From positions 32,001 through 96,000 of IMG/VR virus record IMGVR_UViG_3300009149_000016: a stretch of DNA of 64,000 nucleotides; one strand, written 5' to 3'. This document shows, in pieces, positions 1-19,938 of this stretch. Made by a program: the position numbers and the translations under genes. Under the pieces are notes generated by a model. That model did not search any database and was not told the DNA's origin. It saw only the letters and a program-made list of their open reading frames with translations. The first letter of the stretch is position 1. Every line of letters begins with the position of its first letter. This DNA is from a virus.

Positions 1-672
1 CCAATTGCCCGCCGCTCTGTCAAACCGAAGCTCGAACGGCAGTTGCCACTGAAGCATCCGGGGAAACGCACGACTGACCGCTCGCCGGTACTTACGCAAG
101 ATCACTTCGATCTTGCCATAGGCTTTGGCATCGGCTTTCGGGTCAAACCCAACGAGCAGCGTATTGAAGCCCTCAATTTCCCTTCGAACAGGCTCCGAGG
201 TGGGCTCCTCGAAACGTTCTTCCCACGCAAGACCATCTTCAAGTACACTCAGGGCGTCAACCCCCGCCGTCTGAAGATCGTTGACCCAATCATCCACTTG
301 GTCTTCGAAAGCAGCGAATTCTTCCTCTTCGTCCGAGTCCTCTGCGTACTCACCACCCCAAAGCGCTGGCTCTTGGATGGGCAACTCCAAAAGCTGGAAG
401 ATCTCCGTTCCGGCAGAAAGGAGCATGTCGCGCATGTCGCCAAGCTCTTCATCCCCTTGGTAACGCTCTTGGAGAGACTTGGCTGTCGCTTTGAAGCGGG
501 CGAGCAAGCGATCTCGAAAGACGTCCAGAGCGTCCTTGATCTGCATGGCTTGCTCGTAGTCTTTGGCCCCCTGCACGAGCCGCACGAGTCGTGACAGATC
601 GCCAAGCCAATCCTCGGAAGCTGTTTGGACCCACCGTTGGGCCACCCGAAGCGCCATTTGCCGATCCGACAT
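1..672 (-). CDS. Hypothetical protein with N-terminal RVAxRW tag (3' end runs off the window; missing from the ORF track)
   Basis: Manual translation: ATG at 672, 1 nt after the TAG of the upstream gene, open to position 1: MSDRQMALRVAQRWVQTASEDWLGDLSRL...; codon usage matches the neighbours. Confidence 0.8.
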   Translation of the reverse strand, partial: MSDRQMALRVAQRWVQTASEDWLGDLSRLVRLVQGAKDYEQAMQIKDALDVFRDRLLARFKATAKSLQERYQGDEELGDMRDMLLSAGTEIFQLLELPIQEPALWGGEYAEDSDEEEEFAAFEDQVDDWVNDLQTAGVDALSVLEDGLAWEERFEEPTSEPVRREIEGFNTLLVGFDPKADAKAYGKIEVILRKYRRAVSRAFPRMLQWQLPFELRFDRAAGNW

Positions 673-673
673 C

Positions 674-1690
674 CTACTTGACCTTGCCGCCCTGCATGAA
701 GTCCTCTTCCAGCCCGGGCACAAGGTACTGACTCCGAAGCGTGGAAGGCTCGTGGCCGACTGCCCCGGCTGTCTCCTCAAGCGCCTTGGCGAACTCGTCC
801 TTCAGTTTCTTCTCACGCTTCTTTGGGTCGCTGGGCAGCGTGCCCTTGCGGTTGGCCTTGAGGCGCTCTCGCATCTCTCGGTTCGCATGGAACCCTCGCA
901 AGTCCTTGGCTGTGACGCCGAATTCCTTCAGGTAGGCGTTGATATCCCCTGCCACCACATCACCGAACAGTTCCTCTGACTCGGCGCCGTCGTAGGCCGA
1001 CTTGAGCGCCTTGACGAGCTTGCTGTCCGTGACGGTCTTGTGTTGCTCGACGCCGGACTTGCCGATGTACTTGACCGTCGCACTGCCACCACTGAACGTG
1101 ACGTGCTTCTTTCGCCATTCCGAAACACCGAAGTGTCCGTCTTTGGCTGAACCCGGGTTGCCAATGCGCTCGAAGGTCGCGTCGATGAGCCCAACGATCA
1201 AAGCCGCTTTGGAAGTGCTGAGATCCTTGTTGACCTTCGACCGAAGCTTGCCGATGGCCTTTTCGAGCTTGGCGAGCCGCTCGGCCTTCTTTCGGTTGCG
1301 GTCGGCTACCTGACGATCGCTGTACTCGTAGACGGTCATTTCATCGCCGTCTTGCGTCTTGACCTTCTTTTTGTTCTGGTAACGCGCTGCGACACGCTCG
1401 GCCATGGAGGCTGAGAACGGAACCCGGTCGTAAGAGTCCTCGAAGTCTTCGCAGGTCTCTTGGGCTTTTTCCCTCAACCGCTCTAGCTTACGCTTTTCCT
1501 TGGTCGCCCGTTCTTGCTCCCTGTACCAAGCGGTCTCGTACTGGTCCTGCTTTTTATCGCAGTCCTTTTCGAGCTTTGCCTTCTCCCGCTGGTCTTTCTC
1601 CCACTCTCGAATCGCCTTGGAGAGTTCATTGAAGGCGTTGTCCTGAAGCCATTCCTCGCTCTCACCCGGATGCTCTTCCAGGTACTCCAT
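674..1690 (-). CDS. DNA topoisomerase IB-like protein (probably the C-terminal part of a longer read-through ORF 674-2752)
   Basis: TopIB catalytic-type motifs ERIGN, YIGKSG, INAYL, TAKDLR, GH...LRSQY; no RBS before ATG 1690; in frame with the upstream ORF. Confidence 0.8.
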   Translation of the reverse strand: MEYLEEHPGESEEWLQDNAFNELSKAIREWEKDQREKAKLEKDCDKKQDQYETAWYREQERATKEKRKLERLREKAQETCEDFEDSYDRVPFSASMAERVAARYQNKKKVKTQDGDEMTVYEYSDRQVADRNRKKAERLAKLEKAIGKLRSKVNKDLSTSKAALIVGLIDATFERIGNPGSAKDGHFGVSEWRKKHVTFSGGSATVKYIGKSGVEQHKTVTDSKLVKALKSAYDGAESEELFGDVVAGDINAYLKEFGVTAKDLRGFHANREMRERLKANRKGTLPSDPKKREKKLKDEFAKALEETAGAVGHEPSTLRSQYLVPGLEEDFMQGGKVK

Positions 1691-1744
1691 GAACTGTTCG
1701 GCCCGCTGATCGGGAGTGCCCTTGAACTTGTTCTTGAGCTTGTT

Positions 1745-2752
1745 CTAAGCGTGGGTGTACTCAGGCGGGATGTTGTTCAGCGCCCGCTCGTCATTTTCCT
1801 TCCGGCGCTGCCAACCAAGCTGCTGAGGGGACAGTTTGGCTTGGAAGCGAGACGCCACACGTTCGGCCATGATGTCGCTGAGAATGCGGTCTGACATTGC
1901 TTTGCTCCGATCTCGAACCTCTGCGAGCATCTTGGGGTCGGCATTGCGACCAATCTCTTCCAATTCCTCCCGAGTTGTAATCCGGGCGATCTTGGAGGCA
2001 AACTTTTGCAAGTCCTTGAAAGTCATGAAGCGTGCGGGGCCGGCTGCCTCGTGTTCCTCGACCTTGTTGCTCACCTCGTTGGGGGGTGAGGCCAAACACC
2101 AGTTCCAAAACTCAGGGGTGTCGCAGAACTTGCACGAGGTACCGGCTTCCTGCCAATCCTTCGAACCCGGCGCATAGCCCCAACTGAGGCCGAAGCGCCA
2201 AGCAAGGGTGTTGAGGCACCGCTCACAAGACCGGGCGGAAGCGATGATTGCATCCCCAAAGGGCAGCATGGGGGGCTTGCCGGCACGCTCAGTGGCTGTT
2301 TGAAACTCGTGGGGGGTAGGACGCACCATAGCGAGCACAAGGTCAGGAGAGTAGCCTGAGTGCCCCGTCATGACGTTGTCGAAACCGTGCGCTTCCCACT
2401 TCGTAGGCCACGGGGTGCCAATATCATGAAGCTGCGAACCCCCACACTCGACGCACTTGCGGCCTTCGAGGTGATCTTCCCACCCGTAGGTTGGAAGCAC
2501 CTTGGTATGGGGGCATCCTTCGACGACGCTGGGAAGAATCCGCTTCCTGACGTTCTCGGTCAACGTCATGGGGTCTTGGCTGATATAATAGGGGAAGGAA
2601 TCGGGAGGCTTGTCCTCCCAGGTGTCGACCTTGCCAGGGTCCCCATCACCCGGAATCCACTGCTCCCCTTCCTGATTCTCGTACCACATGGTCGGGAAAG
2701 GCGGTCGGATCGCGATCAAATATCGTGTGGCAATGCGCAGAGCGAGCGACAT
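1745..2752 (-). CDS. Cys-rich hypothetical protein with two RVA/RIA-x-R tags
   Basis: 335 aa ORF with CxxC pairs (CVEC, CERC, CKFC), N-terminal ALRIATRYL and internal AERVASRF. Confidence 0.7.
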   Translation of the reverse strand: MSLALRIATRYLIAIRPPFPTMWYENQEGEQWIPGDGDPGKVDTWEDKPPDSFPYYISQDPMTLTENVRKRILPSVVEGCPHTKVLPTYGWEDHLEGRKCVECGGSQLHDIGTPWPTKWEAHGFDNVMTGHSGYSPDLVLAMVRPTPHEFQTATERAGKPPMLPFGDAIIASARSCERCLNTLAWRFGLSWGYAPGSKDWQEAGTSCKFCDTPEFWNWCLASPPNEVSNKVEEHEAAGPARFMTFKDLQKFASKIARITTREELEEIGRNADPKMLAEVRDRSKAMSDRILSDIMAERVASRFQAKLSPQQLGWQRRKENDERALNNIPPEYTHA

Positions 2753-2755
2753 TGT

Positions 2756-3157
2756 TCAGCCCGCCTTGATTCGATCTCGAATGATCTGGCGTACGTCGAT
2801 CGGCTGAATCTCGATTTCGGTGGCGAGGCGCAAGTACCACCCGGTCTGCTTTTCGAAGGTGTCGATGAGTGAGTCGGCGTAGATCCCCCGATACTCTTTG
2901 ACTTTCTTGAGCCCCCGGGCCGACCCGTTGAAGAACGTCATATCGTAGGTGTCGTCCCCACGAAGCTCGACTTCACAGATGTTGCCCTTGCTCCGCTGCT
3001 TGTTGGGCCACTTGAACATGACACTTTTGCCGGTCTTTTTGATGACCGACGCGCCAAGCATGGCGAACATGCGTCCACCACCCATTTGCTCCAAGATGGT
3101 TCGGGCAACGTCCGCTTGTTTCAGGTAGCGCTCTGCGACTCGTTCGACGATCGACAT
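2756..3157 (-). CDS. Conserved phage hypothetical protein with N-terminal tag
   Basis: VARTILEQMGG...DDTYDM...IYADSL..FEKQTG resembles a recurrent small phage protein family (from recall); begins MSIVERVAERYL. Confidence 0.75.
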   Translation of the reverse strand: MSIVERVAERYLKQADVARTILEQMGGGRMFAMLGASVIKKTGKSVMFKWPNKQRSKGNICEVELRGDDTYDMTFFNGSARGLKKVKEYRGIYADSLIDTFEKQTGWYLRLATEIEIQPIDVRQIIRDRIKAG

Positions 3158-3191
3158 GCCTAGCCAACCTTAGAAAAAGAACATCGATTGG

Positions 3192-3220
3192 TGGATTGGA
3201 ACCAGCCTGCCGCCTTAGAA
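3192..3220 (+). promoter_or_regulatory. Class-1 promoter-like motif (TGGATT-N17-TTAGAA)
   Basis: One of 5 copies with exact 17-nt spacing, followed by GGGGCAC. Confidence 0.6.
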
Positions 3221-3291
3221 GGGGCACAACAACGCGACTCAACGTCCCGAGTGCTAAAACGAAAGCCCGGGACGTTGCCGTTTAAGGGCTC

Positions 3292-3298
3292 GGTGTAG
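3292..3298 (+). promoter_or_regulatory. Class-2 motif GGTGTAG, 8 nt before ATG 3307
   Basis: One of 12 copies at 8-9 nt from a start codon. Confidence 0.65.
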
Positions 3299-3306
3299 AG
3301 GTTATC

Positions 3307-3528
3307 ATGGGTGTTCGAATACTCGAAGGTACGAAAATCAACGACGGACCGAATGCAGGAACCGGCGCCGTGCTGTATTGCTCGACGTCTGGCATCGCCA
3401 TGGCCCCCATGTTCACCGACGGCGTGGAAGCTCAGCGGTTCCTCGACTGGTTCAAGGATGACCCCCGTACCAATGACCATCGCACCTACCAGGAATGGCA
3501 GCGCTGGGTTCGGGAAGGGAAACCTTGA
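3307..3528 (+). CDS. Small hypothetical protein
   Basis: 73 aa ORF preceded by the class-2 motif. Confidence 0.7.
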   Translation: MGVRILEGTKINDGPNAGTGAVLYCSTSGIAMAPMFTDGVEAQRFLDWFKDDPRTNDHRTYQEWQRWVREGKP

Positions 3529-3618
3529 CTGACGCGCCCCCGCCACACCATACTGGTCATGCCGATGGGGGATGACCATCGTGCCTAACTGCCCAAGAGG
3601 GCACGAAAGGATACCCCC

Positions 3619-3936
3619 ATGGTCAATATCACAATTGGACGTTTCGAAGATGATCCCGAAGCTCAGGGAGTCGTTCGCCCTGAAGACGGCCGGTGGCAAC
3701 TCGTCATCGACAAGGACGGCTACCCCCACCTGTACATCCAAGTCAACATTGAGCATGAGGGAAGCAAGGGCAAAGGTTTGCTCTGCATCGACGACATGCT
3801 TCATGGGAAGATGTCCATTCGGGATCTCATGGATGGTGGCGAAGCATTCGGGATCCCCACCCCCGAAGACGAAGCGGCGGCGTACCAAGAATTCTTGGAC
3901 GACCGAAAGGCCAATCCGATTCCTTGCCCTCGATAG
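3619..3936 (+). CDS. Hypothetical protein
   Basis: 105 aa; AAGGA Shine-Dalgarno upstream; coding-like composition. Confidence 0.7.
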   Translation: MVNITIGRFEDDPEAQGVVRPEDGRWQLVIDKDGYPHLYIQVNIEHEGSKGKGLLCIDDMLHGKMSIRDLMDGGEAFGIPTPEDEAAAYQEFLDDRKANPIPCPR

Positions 3937-3953
3937 TCGGTGTAAAGCCCCTC

Positions 3954-4289
3954 ATGGGAAAGAAGGACTTCGAACAGATCAAAAAAGATGGCGGTTACCA
4001 CCCTCGTCTCGGCGACAAGATCCTTGAGGACAAGACCAAGATCGAATGCCTATGGCCGGACGGCTCCATCACGAGGCACAAGTGCCGGGTCGTGTCCGTG
4101 ACCGTTCACGTCGACCACCTGGGACGGTACCCGGGCGACGGCTGGACTTCGAAAGAGAATCGAGATCGAGCCTACATCACCATCGAGCACAACGGGTTGA
4201 AGCTTGACGTTCCCCTCACCGACGAAGGGATCAAGTGCCGGCGAGCCCCTAAGAAGTCCGAAGCCTCCACCCAGTGGGAAAGACTCTAG
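3954..4289 (+). CDS. Hypothetical protein ending STQWERL
   Basis: Start reassigned to ATG 3954, 8 nt after GGTGTAA (3939-3945). Confidence 0.7.
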   Translation: MGKKDFEQIKKDGGYHPRLGDKILEDKTKIECLWPDGSITRHKCRVVSVTVHVDHLGRYPGDGWTSKENRDRAYITIEHNGLKLDVPLTDEGIKCRRAPKKSEASTQWERL

Positions 4290-5245
4290 TCCTTGGGCAA
4301 AACCCAGCCACCCTCGAACATGTCGAGGATCTCAATGAACATGTCATAGGGGTTCTTCCCCTCGTGGTTCACGAGGGTGTTGAAGCCTGCCGCCGCCGTG
4401 TGACCCCCACCCCCGGGAAACATCTTGGCGAGCGCCTTACAGTCGAAACCCGTGTGGCTCCGTGTCGAGTAGATGATCTTGCGCTCACCACCCTCGACGA
4501 ACATGTTGAAGCCCACGACCAAATCGGCATCCTTGTCGATAAGCTCGGCGGCATCGCTCGACGAACGCGTTCCTTCAAACAAGACAACCTTCGTGCCCTT
4601 CTCGCTCTTGGTGCGCCACGCCTCCCGCACCTTGCGAAGGATGCTCTCGTTCCAATCATCGTCGATGAATGCTGGAAGCGTTCCATTGAGAAGGTCGATT
4701 GCCTCGGCCAGGTCGATCGACATCCAAAAGTCCCGGGGCAAACGCATGAGAGTTTGCGCCTGCTTTTTTGCCAAAAACCAATCCGGTGATTTCGTCTGCC
4801 AGGTGTCCCGGATCCCTGCAAGCTCAGCGAACCGGCTCACCTCTTGCTCGCCGACCATTTTGCCCAGACGCTTGATTCGATAGACTGACGGTTGCCAGAT
4901 GTGACGGAAAGCCAGCACGGCCCCGCTCACCCCTGGCTCTTCTTTCTCGTCGGCGTAGACCCCCCGCTCACCGAACGCCGCAACCACGTCTTTGGCACCC
5001 TTGTGGTGGTCGAGACAGAACGCGCCACCGTCGATGAATTCCTGGTACCGGCTGTGGTGGGGGGAGAAATCGACGAACGTCAGACCCTCCTGCACCACCA
5101 TATTTTCGTGCTCTGGTGTGTTGTACTGCATGAATTCGATTGGGACGCTCGGCAACGCGTCTCGCACGATCATGGCAGAGGCAATACCGTCAGGGCAGTT
5201 GGCGTGAGAAACGACCTTGGTGATCTTCTCAACTGGGATTGTCAT
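4286..5245 (-). CDS. DHH/DHHA1 family phosphoesterase (NrnB-like oligoribonuclease)
   Basis: Motifs SHANCPDG, FVDFS, LDHHK, GGGHTAAAGF; ATG 5245 overlaps the upstream TGA (ATGA). Confidence 0.85.
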   Translation of the reverse strand: MTIPVEKITKVVSHANCPDGIASAMIVRDALPSVPIEFMQYNTPEHENMVVQEGLTFVDFSPHHSRYQEFIDGGAFCLDHHKGAKDVVAAFGERGVYADEKEEPGVSGAVLAFRHIWQPSVYRIKRLGKMVGEQEVSRFAELAGIRDTWQTKSPDWFLAKKQAQTLMRLPRDFWMSIDLAEAIDLLNGTLPAFIDDDWNESILRKVREAWRTKSEKGTKVVLFEGTRSSSDAAELIDKDADLVVGFNMFVEGGERKIIYSTRSHTGFDCKALAKMFPGGGGHTAAAGFNTLVNHEGKNPYDMFIEILDMFEGGWVLPKD

Positions 5246-14307: not shown

Positions 14308-15171
14308 TTACTGAGCTTGTAGTTTCGCTTGGAAGTATTTCTTGAACAGCTTTGCTGTCGTCGAACCAATGGCTTTTCGAGCCTCCTTGCTATCGACGAT
14401 CTCCCCTGCACCCTCGCGCAAGACATCCTCCGTCATCGCTTGGATGACTTCTTTGGTCCGTTCCATCCCGATGTCGCCCTCGATCTTGTCCAGGACATGC
14501 TCAAGGCGAGTCGGAGTCACCCACTCATCGGCGATGGCTTGCGCTTCCTCCAACACCTTGAGCTTTTCCGGGTCGACTACCTGGCGAGGCGTATTGGTCT
14601 CCCGCTCCTCATCTCGCTTGTGCTTCGAAAGGACACGCTCCCCCCGGTGGTCTCGGTATTCCGTCAACGGACGAAGCACGACACCTTCACGGGGTTGAGG
14701 TTCTTCAATCCCATTGCGAACCGCTTGAACACTCGGCGCATCCCGCTGCTTGTCGATCTCTTCCACGGTGGCCGCAATCCGCTCATAGTGGACGAATTCC
14801 AAGCTAAGTTTGGTCGCAACATTATGGGCGTTTTCGACGGACAGCCACGTGTCATCGATCTTGACCTCAAAGGCAGCGAACTTCAGATCCTTGCCGTATC
14901 TCCAGGTCTGCTTTTGCTGACTCCCACCATACGCTTCGCCGTAGACAACCACGGTCGGATGACCCAGCGCCTCGAAGGCTTTCACAAGCGCAGCCTCATC
15001 GAACAGCGACCGAAAGCGTTCCGCCTTCGCGCCGCCCGACGAGAATTGCAACTTGCCATCCCGCCATTGGATGCTGGTTGACGTCCCATGGAGCTTTTCC
15101 AAGGCAAAGCATTCCTTGAAGGCTAGGATTCCCTGGTTCTTATAGAGGTTCTCGATGTGTCGGTAGCCCAT
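14308..15171 (-). CDS. RNA ligase, Rnl2-like
   Basis: Nucleotidyltransferase motifs EKLHGTS (I), VYGEAYG (III), AFEV (IIIa), EGVVLRP (IV), SKHK (V). Confidence 0.85.
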   Translation of the reverse strand: MGYRHIENLYKNQGILAFKECFALEKLHGTSTSIQWRDGKLQFSSGGAKAERFRSLFDEAALVKAFEALGHPTVVVYGEAYGGSQQKQTWRYGKDLKFAAFEVKIDDTWLSVENAHNVATKLSLEFVHYERIAATVEEIDKQRDAPSVQAVRNGIEEPQPREGVVLRPLTEYRDHRGERVLSKHKRDEERETNTPRQVVDPEKLKVLEEAQAIADEWVTPTRLEHVLDKIEGDIGMERTKEVIQAMTEDVLREGAGEIVDSKEARKAIGSTTAKLFKKYFQAKLQAQ

Positions 15172-17393: not shown

Positions 17394-18733
17394 GCGTCTA
17401 CCACCAATTCCTCGAACAAAGCTGCTTGGGACGGGGGAAGCTCGCCCAAACAGTAAAAAGCGAACATTTCGGCAAAGTTCTCATCTGGGCTTGTCTTGGC
17501 GTACGGGGTGATGAACCCCTTGAAATCGTTCTTGAGCATCCTTGGGTCGATGCCCTTGAGTCTCAGGTACCCGAACAGGTTGATCTCCGCTGTATCAATA
17601 GAGAAGCTGCGGCGGGTGATGATGTCGATGAGCATCTTCTTTTCCCGCTCTTGCTCTGGCGTGAGAACCCCTTTGAACAGATCGGGAGCCTGCTTTTCCG
17701 CAGAACGAAGCACCTGAGCTTCAAGCTCTTTCTTGTCCTTGTCCGTCAGGACTTTCCGAAGATGAACCTTGTCTTTCTTCATGTACGTGACTTCGTACGT
17801 CTCGCCCTTATCCGTGATGGTGTCACCACGTTCGGGACGATAACCAAGGAAGTCGCTCTGATACCCATCCTCGGCGGCATTGTAGAGGATCTTGGGCACA
17901 CGCTTGTTTTTCAAGAACTTGTTTTCGTACCGATGACCAAGCTCATGAATGATGGTGCGCACGGAGCTTCCCGCCGCAATTTTCTTGTCAGCACGAACGA
18001 AGAATTCATCCGACCCGTAAACGTAGAACGCAAGTACGTTCCCTTTGTCGATCGACTGGCTGATATGAACCTCGCCGTAGCAGACCTTGCCAAGCCCAGC
18101 GGTTGTGATCTCCGATGCAGCCTCTTTGACTGCCTTAGCGCAGATGTCCATCACACCATCGGGGAAGCCACCCATGTTGATGAGGGTGAAGGGTCCGGCC
18201 TTGACCTTCACGGGGTCGTCGGCATCACCCACCGCAATCTCACGACCCTTGCTCAGCGCTTCTTCCAGCGTACTGAAATGCGCCCGAAGGGTATCGAGGT
18301 ACTTGAGATAGTACGTCAGGTAAGCATCGGTGCGCTCCAAGTCCTTCCTTGGGAGGCGGGGGCGGCGGTTGGTTTTCTTCGTCGCCCAAAACTTGACGAG
18401 CTTCTCGACCTTCTTACGCAGCGTTGCTGACAGGCTGTAGGTCTGGAGGATCGCCATCGAGATCCCCCACATCTGGTTGAACCGCTGATTGAAGCCGACC
18501 ACCTCGGACATGATTGTGAACATGTCCCGACCGAAATCGGGTTTTGCCACGTCCTTGCCACGAGCCAAGTCCTTTTTGTACTGCGAAAGGATGGCTTGGA
18601 ACCGCTCGGCGTCCTTCTCAGCGTTGTCGTAAAGGTCGAACTTGCGCCGAAGCTCTTTGAGAAGTGCTTTCGGATCCTCGACGACCGCTGCCTCCAAGTA
18701 CCGGGTGGCGACTCGCTCAGCATGAACGCTCAT
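17390..18733 (-). CDS. Zincin-like metallopeptidase-domain protein with N-terminal tag
   Basis: IIHELGH plus distal TPYAKTSPDENFAEMF; starts MSVHAERVATRYL at ATG 18733 (ATGA overlap). Confidence 0.7.
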   Translation of the reverse strand: MSVHAERVATRYLEAAVVEDPKALLKELRRKFDLYDNAEKDAERFQAILSQYKKDLARGKDVAKPDFGRDMFTIMSEVVGFNQRFNQMWGISMAILQTYSLSATLRKKVEKLVKFWATKKTNRRPRLPRKDLERTDAYLTYYLKYLDTLRAHFSTLEEALSKGREIAVGDADDPVKVKAGPFTLINMGGFPDGVMDICAKAVKEAASEITTAGLGKVCYGEVHISQSIDKGNVLAFYVYGSDEFFVRADKKIAAGSSVRTIIHELGHRYENKFLKNKRVPKILYNAAEDGYQSDFLGYRPERGDTITDKGETYEVTYMKKDKVHLRKVLTDKDKKELEAQVLRSAEKQAPDLFKGVLTPEQEREKKMLIDIITRRSFSIDTAEINLFGYLRLKGIDPRMLKNDFKGFITPYAKTSPDENFAEMFAFYCLGELPPSQAALFEELVVDA

Positions 18734-19938
18734 GCCAACCACCGGTTGGCAACTCGGAGGGCCACACGATCCGCCCCGGACTGAACGAGCCTCGTGAGCC
18801 GGTCTTGAAGCTCTCGTGGCTTGACGAAGGGGTCGTCCAGGATCAGATCCCGGGCCATGTCCACAGCTTTGCTAATGGCGGCTCCCTTGATGCCCGTATC
18901 CTGAATGAGCCGTCGGGTATCAATCGGCGGCTTCAAAAGCTTGTTGTAGACATCTTCCAAGTCGTCATAGCCGAGCTTGCTCTCAATCCGGCGAAGCATC
19001 CGGAGATGTTCAGGACGGAGCTTGTCCAACCCTACCGGAATCTCGAAACCGGCGAGCGTCAAAAGCAGATCGATGTTCTTGACTCGTTGTCCCACGGCTC
19101 GACGCAAACGGCTTGCCGGAAACATCGAAAGCACAGGATCGAGAAGTCCGAGCCCCTTCATGATGGTGAGCGCCTTTTTAGCGCCGGGCAGCTTCAGGAT
19201 CTTGTCGAAGAAAAGCTCGTCGATCGCCTCGTACGAAACCCTTTTGATTTCCTTGGCTTTGCTCTTGATCGCCCGCCGAGTCGCCGGGTCCAATTCGAAA
19301 CCGTATTTCACAGCAAAACGAATCGCCCGAAGCATCCGGGTCGGGTCGTCATCGAAGGTCTCGTTGGGGTCAAGAGGCGTCTTGACGATCTTGTCCTGCA
19401 AGTCCTTGAGCCCAAGCCCGGTCAAGTCGAGGATGGCTTTCTTGTCGGGACCTTGAGCCACATCGAGAAGCCGCCACACGAGCGCGTTGAACGTGAAGTC
19501 CCGGCGAAGCATGTCTTCGAGGATTGTTCCGGGCTCGACCTTCGAAGGCTTGTGACTCCCCTTTTCCTCTCCCTTGCCCTTTTCGTACTTCTCTTTGCGA
19601 GAAGTCACGATCTCGATCTTCTGTCCTTTGAGGTTGACCCCGTCGAATTCAACGTCCACGGGGACAGGTCCAATGTGCACGACGCCGTATTGGTCGGCCT
19701 TGACGTTGGGTACCTGAAGGGCATCGGCAACCGCTTCGGCGAGCGTGACGGCATTCTTGCCGTTTTTCGGCTCGACCACCACGTCGACATCTTTGAAGTC
19801 GAACCCCAAAGCGAAGTCCCGGGGGGCCCCGCCCACGATGTAACTGTGACTGGCCATACCAAGCCGTTTGGCGGTGGCTGACAGCAGTTTGACCAAGGCG
19901 TTGGCCTGTTGGGGGGTGGCGTCGGCAAGTCGGAACAT
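18730..19938 (-). CDS. tRNA nucleotidyltransferase (CCA-adding)/poly(A) polymerase family with C-terminal tag
   Basis: IVGGAPRD, KDVDV, EDMLRRDFTFNA, DDPTRMLRAIRF; ends ALRVANRWLA. Confidence 0.9.
   Translation of the reverse strand: MFRLADATPQQANALVKLLSATAKRLGMASHSYIVGGAPRDFALGFDFKDVDVVVEPKNGKNAVTLAEAVADALQVPNVKADQYGVVHIGPVPVDVEFDGVNLKGQKIEIVTSRKEKYEKGKGEEKGSHKPSKVEPGTILEDMLRRDFTFNALVWRLLDVAQGPDKKAILDLTGLGLKDLQDKIVKTPLDPNETFDDDPTRMLRAIRFAVKYGFELDPATRRAIKSKAKEIKRVSYEAIDELFFDKILKLPGAKKALTIMKGLGLLDPVLSMFPASRLRRAVGQRVKNIDLLLTLAGFEIPVGLDKLRPEHLRMLRRIESKLGYDDLEDVYNKLLKPPIDTRRLIQDTGIKGAAISKAVDMARDLILDDPFVKPRELQDRLTRLVQSGADRVALRVANRWLA

Follow-up and report, generated by a model that had tools for sequence, protein, structure and literature searches.

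Programmed read-through of a stop codon is known from the A1 protein of Qbeta, where it occurs at UGA, and from retroviral gag-pol, where it occurs at UAG with a pseudoknot. A programmed stop would be expected to recur in the nearest relative at the very least. TAG is recoded in some large phages. Phage-specific type IB topoisomerases (TopIB) are known in jumbo phages such as phiRSL1, Lu11 and PaBG (PMC7824862). Packaging and injection are presumed for polyvalent proteins, the multi-domain proteins of phages and conjugative elements described by Iyer et al. (2017, PMC5512222).

The phage gene described here is split by an in-frame TAG and encodes a predicted TopIB in its downstream part. It shares with the A1 protein and gag-pol an in-frame stop followed by same-frame coding sequence that leads into an enzyme domain. 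Unlike in those systems, the stop is unconserved, replaces a conserved Trp inside a folded domain and is followed by no RNA structure. From the amber alleles and split genes of phage populations the locus does not differ in substance. It shows the same Trp-codon transition to TAG, an intact sister allele and an undecayed downstream frame; here a multi-module protein is cut, and the downstream enzyme could be made alone. Like the phage, poxvirus and bacterial TopIB, this enzyme keeps the PF01028 core and the Arg-Lys-Arg-His-Tyr set. Unlike the poxvirus and bacterial enzymes, it is a module of about 245 aa that occurs within multi-module proteins, behind an RVAxRY helix. As in polyvalent proteins, unrelated modules are joined in one polypeptide and are shuffled among relatives, which range from a stand-alone TopIB of 273 aa to proteins of more than 2,000 aa. 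The partner domains among these relatives are NUDIX, GNAT, RadC, 2H phosphoesterase, HD and HAD. Unlike in polyvalent proteins, Topoisom_I is the sole Pfam family here, and no embedded peptidase is seen. By analogy, the split protein may resemble a small polyvalent protein.

The window, which is the whole 64,000-nucleotide stretch of DNA that was analysed, covers bases 32001-96000 of a single 107,136-bp contig with a GC content of 0.58. The contig is the genome of a tailed phage. Its gene products include a family-A-like DNA polymerase, DnaB-like and SNF2-like helicases, a tail-fibre-like protein, a ClpX-type ATPase, an RNA ligase, a DUF1848 protein, a DHH-like phosphoesterase and a CCA/poly(A)-polymerase-type nucleotidyltransferase. 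Under translation table 11, three of its ORFs run uninterrupted for 2279, 1444 and 1340 aa. The split TopIB gene is the penultimate gene in a long minus-strand block (Table 1).

Table 1. Features of the split gene. Positions are those of the window.
Feature	Position	Strand	Basis
Presumed ancestral gene, whole: three-module phage protein, 692 aa with TAG read as Trp	674..2752	-	Collinearity with P0004; P0153
ORF1 as it stands, 335 aa: tag, Cys-rich domain, second tag, first ~24 of ~73 helical-domain residues	1745..2752	-	
Tag copy 1, LALRIATRY, N-terminus of module 1	2720..2746	-	Motif scan
Cys-rich N-terminal domain, residues 4-231, several CxxC-type pairs	2060..2743	-	Four homologues
Tag copy 2, MAERVASRF, head of helical module; modelled within helix 2-20	1844..1870	-	Motif scan, AlphaFold
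Conserved helical domain, P0002 residues ~28-100, TAG in third helix	1601..1819	-	238 homologues
In-frame TAG in place of conserved Trp codon; TGG>TAG, one G>A transition on coding strand	1745..1747	-	
18 sense codons between TAG and ATG 1690	1691..1744	-	Residue-for-residue alignment to uninterrupted homologues L019 and P0004
ORF2 as called, 338 aa: ~30 C-terminal conserved helical-domain residues, coiled-coil helix, tag, TopIB	674..1690	-	
Tag copy 3, MAERVAARY, head of TopIB module	1379..1405	-	Motif scan
Type IB topoisomerase catalytic core (predicted)	740..1303	-	PF01028, ORF2 residues 130-317
Predicted active-site tyrosine codon, TAC	725..727	-	Aligned with Tyr274 of poxvirus TopIB

ORF1, the 18 codons that follow its stop and ORF2 are all in one frame, and reading through the TAG gives a product of 692 residues. 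The first-pass annotation had described two same-frame ORFs parted by a TAG and 18 sense codons, and this is confirmed on the minus strand (2752..1745 and 1690..674). The gap contains no ATG, GTG or TTG. Its codons had been described as typical of coding sequence, and its GC3 of 0.83 is as high as in validated genes. In validated genes, GC by codon position is about 0.59/0.42/0.74, which was taken as the coding signature; both ORF1 and ORF2 show it. Among single-stop junctions between long same-frame ORFs in the whole 107-kb genome, the TAG at 1745-1747 is the only one with the signature on both sides. ORF1 and ORF2 are therefore not chance same-frame neighbours. ORF2 is likewise terminated by TAG. 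The TAG that divides the two ORFs lies outside any homopolymer or repeat.

The intact form of the gene is on record. An exact-sequence look-up of the 692-aa product with W at the TAG position finds an identical protein (P0153; record sources JGI/IMG, Logan and ENA) on an independent 80,150-bp contig. The read-through product and P0153 agree at 691 residues, and their one difference is at residue 336 (W versus stop). The same exact look-up finds records of the 335-aa and 338-aa pieces for the 107,136-bp contig and for no other. Nine further proteins of the phage, with 6,921 residues, are on record. Five are identical to a copy on another contig and the remaining four have one or two substitutions each (5-6 in total), which gives a divergence of about 1 residue per 1,000 from the sister contigs. 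One of these substitutions, V61E in a 217-aa protein, is on the same 80,150-bp contig, ~3.5 kb from the TAG site. With 5-6 substitutions in 6,921 residues, ~0.6 differences are expected in 692 aa at sister divergence, and one is observed, the change of W to stop. From these comparisons, the sister contigs belong to one or more very close yet distinct strains. In viral and metagenome contigs, which may lack near-identical records, an exact DNA pattern across the site (TRG) has no match. A protein-guided scan of metagenome contigs, in which near-identical records are perhaps not included, finds distant TopIB loci only.

More distant relatives are also uninterrupted at this site. The IMG/VR locus L019 has a 481-aa ORF that aligns residue for residue through it (...EYWLTWEKLKGKF... 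in L019, ...EYTHA(stop)NKLKNKF... here), with the TAG opposite Trp. With the 170-residue middle module as query and its TAG read as W, an exhaustive HMMER search gives 238 homologues at E <= 1e-3, most of which cover query residues ~28-100. The column of the TAG is gap-free in 158 homologous stretches and contains W in 128, F in 18, L in 9 and Y in 2. A check of homologues for Trp at this position had been proposed, and W is thus the residue in most of them. Across 75 short homologues, W52 is among the five columns with at least 90% identity.

Four longer relatives contain the Cys-rich, helical and TopIB modules in one polypeptide. P0004 (876 aa) is collinear with read-through residues 3-691 (50% identity, E = 0); it is named 'DNA topoisomerase I' by JGI, lies on a contig of up to 441 kb and has an additional N-terminal NUDIX domain. 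P0008 (1611 aa), P0169 (959 aa, with an HD domain added) and P0170 (1000 aa) have the three modules in the same order. All four (876-1611 aa) have W at the TAG site. Relatives that share modules reach 2,260 aa, and the TopIB module also occurs as a stand-alone protein of 273-351 aa whose start is just before the tag. In GenBank phages, nucleotide and protein searches give one match, to the TopIB part of a 485-kb uncultured phage. Because the homologues are collinear and uninterrupted, the three tag-headed modules are best read as one ancestral protein of ~692 aa. The 18-codon gap, by its alignment, is a portion of the conserved domain and not a spacer. An order of tag-headed Cys, helical and TopIB modules, with the stop in the middle one, had been proposed from the sequence, and the collinear uninterrupted homologues bear it out.

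The tag motif, RVAxR[YFW], heads each of the three modules (2746, 1870 and 1405). Stand-alone TopIB genes of relatives begin at tag copy 3, and TopIB homologues match from about there onward. The tag is common to the IMG/VR relatives, including contigs of 300-450 kb, and to the 485-kb GenBank phage. In L002/L003, L011 and L001, a second tag-like peptide is present at the TopIB C-terminus (for example ...AIRVIQRYL... and ...ATVASRWQ...), so the motif can flank a module on both sides. Both neighbours of the split gene also carry tags. The upstream 133-aa gene (window 2756-3157, minus strand; phrog_9437, of unknown function) has the tag IVERVAERY at its start. Only TGA-ACA-ATG separates it from ORF1, whose frame it shares, and three consecutive tag-headed genes are thus in one frame. 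The common frame may be a coincidence (1 in 9) or may be left over from a still larger fusion. The downstream 509-aa gene (window 1-672, minus strand, continuing to genome position 31143; L022:9146-10672) starts one base past the TopIB stop (TAG-G-ATG). It has the tag MALRVAQRW near its N-terminus and no Pfam or PHROG match.

The Cys-rich domain has no match in Pfam or PHROGs. Its four homologues, P0004, P0008, P0169 and P0170, were found in two separate searches, and all contain TopIB in the same polypeptide. Peptide patterns find no IMG/VR relatives of ORF1 alone. In the protein collection, ORF1 has no relatives of similar length, only longer fused forms.

The helical domain likewise belongs to no Pfam or PHROG family. 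The AlphaFold model of the middle module, built on the homologue alignment, has a pLDDT of 92.4. Downstream of the tag helix, its modelled helices span residues 25-42, 46-58 (which contains W52) and 63-76, followed by a long helix at 78-154. According to this model, the TAG interrupts a folded conserved domain of ~75 residues and not a linker or module boundary. A Foldseek search against the PDB gives nothing at E <= 0.001 for the helical domain, and VIA-align gives generic coiled-coil matches alone (Z ~6). The ESM Atlas has no usable match. The fold of the domain gives no clue to its function. The domain is widespread and uncatalogued, with the consensus ...GWExRRExDExV..NIPP....LW...K..FKGTP..R.E.F..Y.EEHP.E..., and the 238 proteins that contain it have a median length of 216 aa. 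It is also found fused to RadC, Mu-type portal, NUDIX, 2H/Acb1-like, GNAT and transglutaminase domains. In L019 (positions 2972-4417), which is on a 312-kb IMG/VR contig, the long ORF with the helical module overlaps an HNH_3 endonuclease gene in another frame (L019:3172-3660, 5e-9), and this gene is flanked by two near-duplicate segments of the form 'tag + G[YF]FNVGDY'. This arrangement resembles a homing endonuclease inserted between duplicated flanks, or else an intron- or intein-like element that has gone unrecognised. Across the HNH_3 gene, the long ORF may be open by chance.

A TopIB at the C-terminus had been recognised in the first-pass annotation, and the profile search agrees. Pfam Topoisom_I (PF01028) matches ORF2 with E = 7e-21 (75 bits against a cut-off of 23.7), and the protein contains no other Pfam family. 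ORF2 aligns to the TopIB structures of variola/vaccinia virus (2h7f, 1a41) and D. radiodurans (2f4q). In these alignments, the Arg, Lys, Arg, His and Tyr catalytic positions are all kept, which we take to be R130, K167, R223, H265 and Y274 of the poxvirus enzyme. The alignment starts at residue 68 of the 314-aa variola enzyme and at residue 75 of the D. radiodurans enzyme, and the module begins only ~28 residues ahead of this point. At ~245 aa it is very short. Most of the N-terminal DNA-binding domain of the poxvirus and bacterial enzymes seems, from the alignment, to be absent.

The TAG is probably a real, strain-specific nonsense allele produced by a TGG>TAG change. A nonsense mutation or an assembly error of this type had been the fallback explanation of the first-pass annotation, and the near-invariant Trp and the 692-aa Trp form in the sister strain both fit it. 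The competing view within this fallback is a consensus error of sequencing or assembly. In that case, the phage would really have TGG, and the A at 1746 (coding strand) would have been miscalled or would be a minority variant that became fixed in the consensus. Such an error would explain why an otherwise identical W form exists in another assembly, why the difference is one base and why ORF2 is fully intact. It is unlikely, however. Ordinary substitutions occur at ~1 per 1,000 residues between the two assemblies, and at this level real SNPs are far commoner than the consensus substitution errors that would be expected if this is a short-read assembly. The site is outside any homopolymer or repeat, and the rest of the contig is otherwise clean, with its very long intact ORFs. 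These three points favour a real allele over an error. Whichever of the two it is, the event is not programmed.

The first-pass annotation had given preference to programmed amber read-through or suppression, in which a leaky TAG sets the ratio of N-terminal fragment to full-length TopIB fusion and thereby the dose of TopIB. The coding-like in-frame gap, the weak Shine-Dalgarno sequence at ATG 1690 and the A that follows the stop are compatible with this, but none of them is specific to programming. The annotation had stated that ATG 1690 has no ribosome-binding site. This is roughly right, with an anti-SD duplex of -3.4 kcal/mol, but it does not discriminate: of ten JGI-confirmed starts, seven have values of -6.3 to -9.3 kcal/mol and three have values of -2.0 to -4.0 kcal/mol. 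The stop itself is not conserved: Trp is the residue in the nearest relative, and the site is W, F, L or Y, never a stop, across the 158 homologous stretches. By ARAGORN, neither the window nor the complete 107,136-bp contig, treated both as linear and as circular DNA, contains a tRNA, so a phage-encoded suppressor with a CUA anticodon, for which a search had been suggested, is absent together with all other tRNAs. This result covers phage DNA only. The RNA after the TAG is unstructured (121-nt fold, z = -0.32, equalled or bettered by 72 of 200 shuffles). The stop also lies within a helix of a conserved domain and not at a module boundary, and the same gene ends in TAG. Programmed read-through is very improbable on this evidence. 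Genome-wide reassignment of TAG, or two separate genes with an independent start at 1690, is barely credible. The recoding of TAG in some large phages and the JGI gene caller, which gives two proteins here, speak for these options. However, TAG serves as a true terminator of ORF2 and of at least three other coding-signature genes whose downstream frame is non-coding, as the first-pass annotation had also concluded. No other in-frame TAG in the whole genome lies between two coding-signature ORFs. Table 11 leaves ORFs as long as 2279 aa uninterrupted, and in a crude ORF set the median in-frame extensions past TAA, TAG and TGA are alike (23, 20 and 26 codons). Against two genes, the best 150 of the 238 matches include only one that starts past the TAG site and looks split, which is the window's own ORF2 (P0003, the database's own call). 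Among these 150, no other homologue starts at the equivalent of ATG 1690, and the Met is internal there in relatives. Homologues are thus not consistently two genes.

The TGG>TAG change in the sequenced strain is recent, because ORF2 shows no further decay and its catalytic pentad is intact. It is an ordinary kind of nonsense change, already known in phage populations. A G>A transition would have created the TAG from a near-invariant Trp codon that lies in the middle domain, in helix 3. Translation would then end at 1745 and yield an N-terminal fragment of 335 residues, which contains the tag, the Cys-rich domain and the second tag, together with roughly the first third of the helical domain. 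The TopIB part would be made at a low level only, either by re-initiation at ATG 1690 (54 nt downstream, with its weak Shine-Dalgarno sequence) or by basal near-cognate read-through. Because relatives encode stand-alone TopIB proteins of 273-351 aa, a separately made TopIB could remain functional, and the ORF2 product would bear a broken half-domain at its N-terminus. The allele may persist because the protein is accessory and dispensable, or because the two pieces still partly work. It is highly improbable that the allele is a maintained polymorphism, or a leaky stop, that uncouples TopIB from the Cys-rich module or tunes it down. The route would then be a strain-level dosage switch by termination and re-initiation at ATG 1690, or by host amber suppression.

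In relatives, the tag-headed mini TopIB is repeatedly fused to or near RNA-end-processing enzymes (L001:2494-4020, L009, L013, P0004 and P0169). The partners are HAD_SAK_1, a 'Swiss Army Knife RNA repair' HAD domain, in the 485-kb phage, NUDIX in P0004 and HD in P0169. In L009 and L013, 2H-phosphoesterase-like HxT motifs are directly upstream of TopIB. The RNA ligase and the CCA-type nucleotidyltransferase of the phage described here are at 14311-15171 and 18733-19938 of the window. These associations hint that phage TopIBs of this kind may serve RNA repair or RNA-end chemistry, instead of or besides DNA relaxation.

For annotation, the 335-aa and 338-aa calls are to be treated as one interrupted gene, which exists intact in the sister strain as the gene of the 692-aa protein. 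Because the conserved domain was cut in half, the split hid it from profile searches. Exact look-up of a read-through product can decide between a programmed and a mutated stop without reads. The lead worth following is a family of phage proteins, extending up to huge phages, that are built of modules each opening with an RVAxRY helix. A second lead is the recurrent fusion of a minimal TopIB to RNA-end-processing enzymes.
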